IMG/VR virus record: IMGVR_UViG_3300045988_024527 | Coordinates: 1 to 64,000 of that record | Length of the DNA: 64,000 bases | Direction: 5' to 3' (one strand) | DNA from: a virus | Lineage: Duplodnaviria > Heunggongvirae > Uroviricota > Caudoviricetes | In this document: positions 32,085 through 33,130 of the stretch, piece after piece | How the letters are laid out: each line of letters opens with the position of its first letter | Numbering within the stretch: position 1 is the first letter of the stretch | Notes under the pieces: generated by a model | Seen by the model: only the letters and a program-made list of their open reading frames with translations | Told to the model about the DNA's origin: nothing | Database searches by the model: none | Position numbers and translations under genes: made by a program

Positions 32085-32525
32085 TTAGAAAGGTTTTCTA
32101 CGTTGCTTGTTAATGTTAGCTTTCATAGCAGCTAAATGGTTTTGCTGTTCAATCAGTCGTGAACGTTCTTGATGACTAAGTGCCATAGTGTTCACATTCT
32201 CAATTGCTTGAGTGGCTTGTTTTAAAGCACGACCAATCTTACCAGACATTTTACGTTTTGCAATAGTTGCTTGATGTTTAGGTTCAACCACACGATAACC
32301 AACACCCATTGAAGCAACCAGATAAATCTTCTCTTCTTTAAGAAGTTTCTCAATAAACTTCTCAAGTCGGTTTAGACGTGTAAGTGCATAAGCCTTCATT
32401 TCATCTTCGTACTTAACAATGTCACCTTGATAAGTTGGCTTCACAATACCTAAGAAGGTGTCCATCTCAGAATGTGATACAGTGTCACCGTAACTAAACT
32501 TTGCTGCTAATGCTTTTGTATTCAT
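32085..32525 (-). CDS. hypothetical protein (146 aa), repeat-flanked cassette gene 2
   Basis: ORF track; basic C-terminus; no recognised motif. Confidence 0.5.
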   Translation of the reverse strand: MNTKALAAKFSYGDTVSHSEMDTFLGIVKPTYQGDIVKYEDEMKAYALTRLNRLEKFIEKLLKEEKIYLVASMGVGYRVVEPKHQATIAKRKMSGKIGRALKQATQAIENVNTMALSHQERSRLIEQQNHLAAMKANINKQRRKPF

Positions 32526-32527
32526 AA

Positions 32528-33130
32528 TTAAACATTACCTTCTGAAATAACTTCTACAGAAAAACGACCAAAGCGTGGACGCCAATCACCTACACCACAA
32601 AGGTTACCAGCATTTTCCAGAACCATCAGGAGTTCCTCTTTGGTGATTTGCTCTTCATCGAACATCAAACCGAACTCTACAGACCAGTCGCGGAAGATTG
32701 GACGGTAGCTCATAACTCGTGCTGTACCAATCTTAACAGACTTAGCATAGATAAAGTCTGGATTCTTAGCAAGTTCTTGTGGGTTTGCTGGACAGTTCTT
32801 GATAGTCATTGGGAAGACTACATCTGTCAGCATAATGGCTCGGTCAATCACCTTACCAAGTTTGTTGAGTTTCGCACCAGACTTGATGCAAGCCTCAATC
32901 ATCTCACCGTTCATAACAAAACCTAGCTGCTCATCGTAGTAACAAGAAGTTACCAGTTGGCTTTCTGCTAAGAGCGCATAGTCTTCGTCGGTCTTTTTAC
33001 GTTTACTGGACAGAGACTTGTGATATTTTGTCAGAGGGTTTAATGGGTCTGACAGTGTATCAGCGTGGCTCAGGAAAGGACGAGTACCAGTGATTTTGAT
33101 ATTTAACAGTTTCATAGCATTTAGCTCCAC
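32528..33130 (-). CDS. hypothetical protein (200 aa), repeat-flanked cassette gene 1
   Basis: ORF track; no recognised motif. Confidence 0.5.

Follow-up and report, generated by a model that had tools for sequence, protein, structure and literature searches.

A two-gene, four-guide locus of a Felix O1-like phage is very probably a type II VIPR (Viral Interference Programmable Repeat) system

The window, that is, the whole stretch of 64,000 nucleotides of viral DNA that was analysed, belongs to a Felixounavirus, a Felix O1-like myovirus, and over 200 Felixounavirus records share 91-96% identity with its positions 31700-33530. The gene order is that of phage wV8, with genes for a thymidylate synthase and a DHFR, small genes, the gene of a secreted protein of 127 aa, two ORFs, an ATP-dependent ligase gene and the DNA polymerase gene. 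Both ORFs lie on the minus strand and had been listed in an earlier note on this DNA as a coupled pair at 32085-32525 (146 aa) and 32528-33130 (200 aa from a GTG), and they are indeed coupled, with a gap of 2 nt between the stop of the one and the start of the other. The first to be transcribed (ORF A, vipr) is a real ORF, but its start is likelier the ATG at 33115 than the GTG at 33130, because that ATG is preceded by a GGAG Shine-Dalgarno sequence at 33128-33125, all relatives have the protein annotated with 195 aa, and no other start agrees with the residue numbers of the SUSP1 Vipr structure. Thus delimited (32528-33115, minus strand), vipr encodes a 195-aa protein. It is followed by vap1 (ORF B, 32085-32525, minus strand), which begins 2 nt past the vipr stop and encodes a 146-aa Vipr-accessory protein.

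Several control elements frame the two genes. A sigma-70-type promoter (TTGACA-16-TATACT, 33491-33518, minus strand) stands just downstream of the ligase stop, agrees with the consensus at 11 of 12 positions, and is conserved in SUSP1, in the vipr-less phage 35FD and in every relative and vipr-less locus inspected. To judge from its sequence, this promoter likely drives the guide-RNA genes upstream of vipr and perhaps also vipr-vap1. Directly upstream of vipr, a weak promoter-like site (TTTACA-18-TAAAGT, 33131-33160, minus strand) is recognized by consensus match only, at 9 of 12 positions, and a promoter is annotated at the equivalent position in phage ASO1B. After vap1 comes an intrinsic terminator composed of AGCCTC-TTCG-GAGGCT and a T run (32051-32073, minus strand); its stem at 32073-32058 and the T run fit the terminator that had previously been assigned to the pair at 32046-32073.

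Repeats occupy the intergenic regions on both sides of the ORFs. The earlier note had recognized modular repeat blocks there, and the direct-repeat families D7, D8 and D10 do link 31822-32054 with 33274-33460. It had treated them as mere flanks, whereas they are the genes of the guide RNAs (vrRNAs) of the system, and the functional unit extends from ~31790 to 33518 on the minus strand, the span 32085-33130 given earlier covering the two ORFs only. Four vrRNA genes are found, all on the minus strand, each made of a leader, a tract of YNNGG units and a 34-nt pseudoknot tail. Upstream of vipr, U1 (33335-33421) has 11 units, five of them with a degenerate GG, preceded by a leader of type 1 and ended by a tail of type a, and U2 (33192-33294) has 14 units with an extra G after unit 7, a leader of type 2 and a tail of type b. 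Downstream of vap1, D1 (31922-32018) has 13 units (3 degenerate), a leader of type 2 and a tail of type a', which differs by compensatory changes, and D2 (31790-31881) has 12 units (3 degenerate), a leader of type 1 and a tail of type b'. The type 1 leader, a hairpin CATCACTTAA...TTAAGTGATG read from the sequence, lies directly 5' of the U1 tract (33422-33460, minus strand) and again 5' of D2 (31882-31920, minus strand). It also precedes the upstream vrRNA of SUSP1 and many vrRNAs of relatives, and may be a candidate processing site or promoter. The type 2 leader (CCTTTTTAAAAGGTCTTTAAGAGGGTCTTTTAATGAGG) is found 5' of U2 (33295-33332, minus strand) and 5' of D1 (32019-32057, minus strand), where it overlaps the T run of the terminator, and likewise precedes many vrRNAs of relatives.

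A scan for GGY with a period of 5 over both strands of the 64 kb returned three tracts only, all on the minus strand and all in the two intergenic regions flanking the ORFs, a confinement which argues that the repeats are real and far from chance. U1 was missed at the threshold used because it is too degenerate; all four tracts are co-oriented with vipr. The code of the repeats was derived from 51 unique tracts, comprising 645 units, collected from 17 related IMG/VR loci. The first position of the unit is Y in 98% of the units, the fifth is G in 97% and the fourth is G in 79%, and the second and third positions reach entropies of 1.92 and 1.93 bits. As for the tails, 14 distinct 34-nt sequences align without gaps and fit one H-type pseudoknot, as do all four tails of the window. 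In this alignment, 91.6% of the cells hold standard pairs and 9 of the 11 pairs are changed on both sides; when the pairing partners are slid by 1-3 columns as a control, standard pairs amount to 29-43%. A family for the vrRNAs was not found in Rfam 15.

The earlier note had seen no recognizable motif in the pair and had left its function open. ORF A, in fact, carries a RAMP-type glycine-rich loop, and the profile of its family matches chain D of PDB entry 36pp, named 'SUSP1 Vipr protein', over the full length with E=6.7e-79; the protein with the solved structure, from phiSUSP1, is 98.5% identical to it. All of the 13 functional residues named from the cryo-EM work (bioRxiv 10.64898/2026.04.26.720927) are kept at their published numbers when counted from ATG 33115, namely H17, K33, R39, E71, M72, K82, G87, K88, R138, C173, D177, W178 and R179. 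The AF2 model, built on an alignment of 50 family members, has a mean pLDDT of 96, and its top Foldseek matches, with E values from 4e-5, TM ~0.5 and 10-15% identity, are Csm3/Cas7 subunits of CRISPR effectors of types III and VII; in the PDB copy used for this search, the Vipr chain is absent among the matches. In the Vipr alignment, an invariant C-terminal glycine-rich stretch resembles the RAMP glycine-rich loop. Profile, identity, residues and AF2 model all point to a minimal RAMP protein, and the profile and Foldseek checks that had been proposed for ORF A, by returning SUSP1 Vipr and Csm3/Cas7, run contrary to the function having been called unknown, the orthologous SUSP1 locus having been characterized in 2026. 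Annotation libraries are of little help here. Scans of both proteins with Pfam, NCBIfam and PADLOC gave nothing meaningful, with 0 matches for either protein at E up to 1 in PADLOC-DB v2.0.0, a library from 2023 that predates VIPR. The relatives of ORF A form 520 clusters in a large protein database, none of which has a Pfam domain, and ORF A corresponds to phrog_4652, PHROGs giving only families of unknown function for both proteins.

Phages of Gordonia, Pseudomonas, Mycobacterium, Vibrio and Listonella have distant homologues of ORF A, with 23-44% identity, and at each of these loci a gene for a partner of 140-190 aa lies downstream of vipr. Some of these modules are oppositely oriented or inserted among head or tail genes, and several of the homologues are flanked by YNNGG tracts on the same strand. 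The vap1 product is 99.3% identical to that of the SUSP1 gene downstream of vipr, and distant vap1 homologues follow vipr in the Pseudomonas, Gordonia, Mycobacterium, Vibrio and Listonella phages. A word-indexed homology search with Vap1 alone yielded near-identical proteins only, and a profile made from the partners of the distant vipr genes was needed for the vap1 family to be recovered; these partners align with ORF B and have in common the motifs F-YGE and G-YR-(V/I)-x-P-x-E. The AF2 model of Vap1 has a pLDDT of 93, its winged-helix matches are weak, and a GYR 'wing' motif is present. Vap1 is probably winged-helix-like and DNA-binding.

Short iterated repeats adjoining a putative DNA-binding protein, in the midst of replication genes (ligase, polymerase), could also evoke a replication-origin or partition-like module, in which GGT-rich iterons would be bound as DNA by a winged-helix-like ORF B, as its wing motif and weak fold matches would allow, or by ORF A. 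The repeat tracts, however, lie at all loci on one strand only, that of vipr, and each of them ends in a covarying RNA pseudoknot. Moreover, the variable dinucleotides differ between near-identical phages, which recognition of iterons by an initiator would not tolerate, the vipr-less phages replicate without both proteins, and published small-RNA sequencing of SUSP1 shows the tracts to be RNAs bound by Vipr. Iterons of an origin were thus rejected because the tracts are strand-specific, their tails covary and their NN is hypervariable, and this explanation deserves practically no credence.

The VIPR system itself is already known, from two bioRxiv preprints of 2026 and a PDB entry on the 98.5%-identical orthologue, this primary literature still preceding peer review. 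VIPR associates Vipr, a minimal RAMP protein, with an accessory Vap protein and vrRNAs (bioRxiv 10.64898/2026.04.26.720920, 10.64898/2026.04.26.720927). The vrRNAs are RNAs of ~100 nt. They consist of 9-16 YNNGG repeats, with GGY conserved and NN hypervariable, and of an invariant tail, which in the SUSP1 clade folds into a pseudoknot; frequent internal degeneracy of the repeats is noted as well. One Vipr protomer binds per repeat, and the NN bases pair with dsDNA, one base being skipped, to give an R-loop triplex and silencing (bioRxiv 10.64898/2026.04.26.720920 /.720927). In SUSP1, the vrRNAs (~100 nt) co-purify with Vipr in a complex that represses transcription, and protection is enhanced by vap1. 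In the SUSP1 locus, which is assigned with the P. fulva system to type II, vipr-vap1 is preceded by one vrRNA and followed by three. Among the identifiable targets of the SUSP1 clade, 18 of 20 lie in an E. coli satellite phage, whose baseplate protein is 72% identical to that of SUSP1 (bioRxiv 10.64898/2026.04.26.720920 /.720927).

By analogy, the 195-aa Vipr of the window would coat each vrRNA with one protomer per pentamer, burying the GGY bases and exposing the two variable ones. The filament would then read dsDNA as NN-x-NN-x, one target base being skipped per unit, and the R-loop triplex formed in this way would block transcription. The four vrRNAs, of ~90-100 nt with 11-14 YNNGG pentamers and the 34-nt pseudoknot tail, would guide Vipr, the vap1 product, a probable DNA-binding accessory, would boost silencing, and the satellite genes would be silenced during infection, which would protect the phage from its parasite.

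The 72% identity of the baseplate proteins led to a search of complete E. coli genomes in which the query was the gene next after the tape-measure gene of the phage. When the downstream vrRNA region was itself compared by blastn with all complete E. coli genomes, there were 0 matches, and the satellite was therefore located through its baseplate gene. Among 5426 complete E. coli genomes, 474 (~9%) have a gene annotated as 'phage baseplate protein' that matches positions 18002-18799 of the window. Seven regions were examined, and each is an island of ~12 kb that carries the baseplate gene, a tape-measure gene, small genes and a gene for a large serine recombinase; a Dam-type methylase and/or an HTH protein is encoded in most of them. 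The islands lie in yecE or at other insertion sites. The guides were scored through their NN bases, with the 1-nt-skip pattern, at every position of 392 kb (the seven satellite regions, both strands) and compared with 200 unit shuffles. U1 matches 20 of 22 NN bases at 9670-9702 of satellite L059, within the CDS 9542-10252 (binomial expectation 5e-5). U2 matches 24 of 28 at 9181-9222 of L010, within the CDS 9113-9409 (1e-5), and equally at 8487-8528 of L013, the match staying in register past the extra G that the guide contains. D1 matches 24 of 26, antisense, at 8713-8751 of L012, within the CDS 8302-8856 (3e-7). No shuffle out of 200 did as well for any of these three guides. The best match of D2 over the seven satellites, 19 of 24 at 7561-7596 of L061 within the CDS 7315-7869, is borderline, with an expectation of 0.016 and 5 of the 200 shuffles as good.

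In all four matches, the skipped base falls on codon position 3, the wobble position, of the annotated CDS. Target models with a skip of 0, 2 or 3 were tried and rejected, as they gave only 15-18 matches, which is background. The same rule holds for the relatives, since 28 of their 51 unique guides reach at least 80% with a skip of 1, all 28 within the satellite, which makes up 45% of the DNA searched, and none of the 51 does so with a skip of 0, 2 or 3. Within the 64-kb window, no self-target reaches 80%, the best being 15/22 for U1, 18/28 for U2, 18/26 for D1 and 17/24 for D2 (at most 71%). The guides of this phage are most likely aimed at genes of the ~12 kb integrative E. coli satellite, and the system most likely represses a phage parasite during infection, because the satellite encodes tape-measure and baseplate proteins related to those of the phage. 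That the island is a satellite of this very phage, and that the phage would benefit from its silencing, follows the reasoning of the preprint and the shared structural genes.

It may be asked whether the locus is still functional in this phage or is a decaying remnant of a VIPR system. Degenerate units are present in U1 (5 of 11), D1 and D2 (3 each), an extra G breaks the frame of U2, D2 is devoid of a clear target, and members of the genus have often lost the cassette. The U1 and U2 guides may even be partly impaired, because of the degenerate GG of five U1 units and the 1-nt insertion of U2. However, both ORFs are intact and their proteins are 96-100% identical to those of relatives, all functional residues are kept, and ~21% of the position-4 bases are other than G across relatives, including the experimentally active guides of SUSP1, in line with the degeneracy noted in the preprint. 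Three of the guides still match satellite genes at 86-92%, phased on the wobble base. Decay is, on balance, improbable.

The distribution of the cassette was followed by tblastn, which finds ORF A at 90% identity or more in 118 records of enterobacterial phages; the count for ORF B is also 118, whereas the region from the ligase to the secreted-protein gene is matched by 260 records. In phage vB_Si_35FD, both ORFs are missing and the intergenic region measures ~430 nt. The cassette is thus accessory. Similarly, among 21 IMG/VR loci anchored on the secreted-protein gene, vipr is present in 13 and missing in 8. The possibility that the pair encodes a core replication protein, syntenic in all relatives, was looked at, and it does not describe a cassette that is absent from about half of them. 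Among relatives, DNA identity is 96.7% for vipr and 97.6% for vap1, against 90.9% for the 3' part of the ligase gene and 95.0% for the secreted-protein gene. The image of an isolated early-region cassette engaged in conflict therefore stands as far as its discrete and accessory nature is concerned, the cassette being missing in about half of the close relatives, but host takeover or anti-defence in the usual sense gives way to RNA-guided transcriptional silencing of a satellite.

A pair of anti-defence or host-takeover proteins, with repeats serving only as structural or recombinational borders of a mobile cassette, would account for a presence in only ~118 of ~260 related phage records, for the early-region location and the moron-like positions in distant phages, and for the silence of Pfam, NCBIfam and PADLOC; the repeats even appear to mediate a deletion that removes the cassette. 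Passive borders, however, are expected to be free of any code, covariation or target matches, whereas these repeats display a pentamer code with conserved GGY and hypervariable NN, their tail pseudoknot covaries, and their satellite matches appear only under the 1-nt-skip rule, next to a protein 98.5% identical to a structurally characterized RNA-guided DNA binder. Passive att-like borders were also rejected on strand specificity, besides tail covariation and hypervariable NN, and are largely refuted; this explanation as a whole is very improbable.

About half of the felixounaviruses are without vipr-vap1 and yet have one or two intact vrRNAs that still match the satellite, under the same promoter. 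Indeed, all nine vipr-less loci inspected (the eight above and 35FD) keep one or two vrRNAs with leader, GG periodicity, tail and the same strong promoter. Their layout combines a leader of one type with tail b', as would be left by a deletion between the upstream and the downstream vrRNA tracts, and recurrent recent deletion is the simplest reading of these orphan arrays. Some orphan guides are shared with relatives that have vipr. The first guide of the vipr-less locus L047 is U1 of the window except for one base, a nearly identical U1 guide being found in L023 too, as is a nearly identical D1 guide in L026, and the first guide of the vipr-less locus L039 is, for the most part, closely similar to guides of L014 and L019. 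Among the orphan guides that could be parsed and scored, 6 of 9 reach at least 80% against the satellites, as do 20 of 30 guides in loci with vipr. One satellite (L061, 4923-4869) carries a vrRNA of its own, with a compensated tail and neither vipr nor vap1. Since orphan guides match satellites and a satellite has a vrRNA without vipr, the use of Vipr in trans is conceivable. A tentative and rather doubtful extension would be that the orphan vrRNAs are under selection, either by using in trans the Vipr of a co-infecting vipr-carrying phage, as satellites appear to do, or as decoys soaking up the Vipr of a competitor. Effector-less vrRNAs are reported only in satellites (bioRxiv 10.64898/2026.04.26.720920 /.720927), vrRNAs in vipr-lacking phages were not found described in the VIPR preprint, and this polymorphism seems absent from the two preprints.

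Taken together, the minus-strand region ~31790-33518 is very probably a type II VIPR locus of a Felixounavirus, because of the Vipr homology, the vrRNAs and the 1-nt-skip satellite matches. As far as sequence goes, it displays every feature that defines a type II VIPR of the SUSP1 clade. Homology, fold, repeat code, tail covariation and target matches with one skipped nucleotide and wobble phasing come from the present analysis, RNP formation, triplex, transcriptional repression and enhancement by vap1 are taken from the SUSP1 papers, and expression and processing in this phage, as well as the benefit against the satellite, are presumed. What is added here is the set of guides, the map of their targets in the satellite and the polymorphism of the orphan guides. 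VIPR being a newly described RNA-guided DNA recognition with a non-contiguous code, the window offers an independent natural example, in which the GGY/NN code, the wobble-phased 1-nt skip and the targeting of an E. coli satellite are reproduced with different tools. In terms of annotation, the pair of 'hypothetical proteins' after the ligase of Felix O1-like phages forms one functional unit with the 'direct repeats' rich in GGT (DR_4 in phage wV8). Presence or absence of the cassette and guide-only arrays constitute a natural experiment on the loss, exchange or exploitation in trans of such systems.

The closest known system is the type II VIPR of SUSP1, a locus likewise placed between the DNA ligase gene and a small secreted-protein gene, with Vipr and Vap1 98.5% and 99.3% identical to those of the window, the same two types of leaders and the same types of tails, YNNGG vrRNAs on both sides, and targets in E. 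coli satellite islands that belong to one family. The upstream vrRNA of SUSP1, which was detected experimentally and has 12 units, bears the same leader and tail elements. The two loci differ in the distribution of their vrRNAs, two upstream and two downstream here versus one and three in SUSP1, and in all four guide sequences, a 6-nt unit being present in U2 here. Moreover, the window belongs to Felixounavirus and SUSP1 to Suspvirus, the flanking DNA being only ~91% identical.

Another lytic phage, ICP1, uses an RNA-guided system with guides against a chromosomal satellite by which it is exploited, its CRISPR-Cas targeting PLE in Vibrio cholerae. The CRISPR-Cas of ICP1 is a complete type I-F system, capable of adaptation and of degrading DNA, whereas a single small RAMP protein, silencing and no known adaptation machinery characterize the present system. 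[quoted passage not shown] Unlike Class 1 CRISPR-Cas, the locus lacks a repeat-spacer array, cas1/cas2 and any other cas gene. Indeed, a repeat search of the window found no CRISPR array, only the modular vrRNA elements, with 0 matches to Rfam CRISPR direct repeats, and no cas1 or cas2 lies near the locus, where the neighbours are the ligase, small phage proteins, an HNH protein and the polymerase. The guide is non-contiguous, two of every five RNA bases reading two of every three DNA bases, and VIPR is encoded by a phage and binds its target instead of cutting it. VIPR has been proposed as the viral ancestor of the CRISPR RAMP proteins.

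Felixounaviruses lacking vipr (the RAMP protein gene) and vap1 (its 146-aa accessory gene) carry one or two well-formed vrRNA genes, encoding guide RNAs with a leader, a YNNGG tract and a pseudoknot tail. Such orphan vrRNA regions lie at 780-1410 in phage vB_Si_35FD (L003) and at about 2300-3000 in each of the related phage loci L037, L039, L043, L045-L047, L053 and L057. Upstream of them stands a TTGACA...TATACT promoter, which is common to the vipr-carrying locus. Nine orphan guides were parsed and scored, and six of them reach a match of at least 80% to the satellite of E. 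coli. These orphans may be deletion scars, or guides working in trans.

One satellite island, that of E. coli RL465 (L061), includes its own 11-unit vrRNA (4869-4923, with a tail to about 4838, minus strand), without vipr or vap1. Its tail is of type b, with compensatory changes. In phage 35FD, the second of the orphan guides has its top match (23/26) at a site overlapping this satellite vrRNA gene.

The pentamer register of vrRNA tracts is now and then broken by 6-nt units, in which an extra G follows ...GGG. One is found at 33258-33260 in U2, the second upstream vrRNA of the window, and another in the third vrRNA of the related phage locus L030. As the U2 target match stays in phase past the extra G, a bulged base may be tolerated by the Vipr filament. 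Queries containing a vrRNA hit two to three separate places in many felixounavirus genomes; no further vrRNA-like modules were found within the 64-kb window, and additional ones may be present elsewhere in these multi-match genomes, beyond the span of the window.

The phage gene following the tape measure (18002-18799, plus strand; 265 aa, phrog_3721) has a counterpart in the satellite, a 'phage baseplate protein' gene located at 14986-15759 of the E. coli region L010, with equivalents in other islands. Over a stretch of about 550 nt the two genes are mostly 80-95% identical in nucleotide sequence, which suggests a recent exchange between phage and satellite. Among 5426 complete E. coli genomes, 474 carry the integrative island of about 12 kb to which this baseplate gene belongs.

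Translated His-rich repeats of G-A-H-T-H-type units, both tandem and dispersed (24540-24834 and 27174-27441, plus strand), are contained in two large ORFs of the plus strand (23793-24959 and 25011-27533) that are probably tail fibres. A 69-nt repeat occurs in three copies at 25656-26390. The direct-repeat families D2, D6 and D11 of the window are due to a cluster of 16 tRNA genes (698-4061, plus strand), namely Ser, Leu (three), Lys, Ala, Gly, Thr, Val, Arg, Gln (two), His, Phe, Ser and Cys. The DNA polymerase gene is closely followed downstream by a 177-aa ORF (35919-36452, minus strand) that resembles homing endonucleases of the HNH/AP2 type. An HNH homing endonuclease is annotated at the corresponding position in phage ASO1B, and the related phage wV8 has none there.
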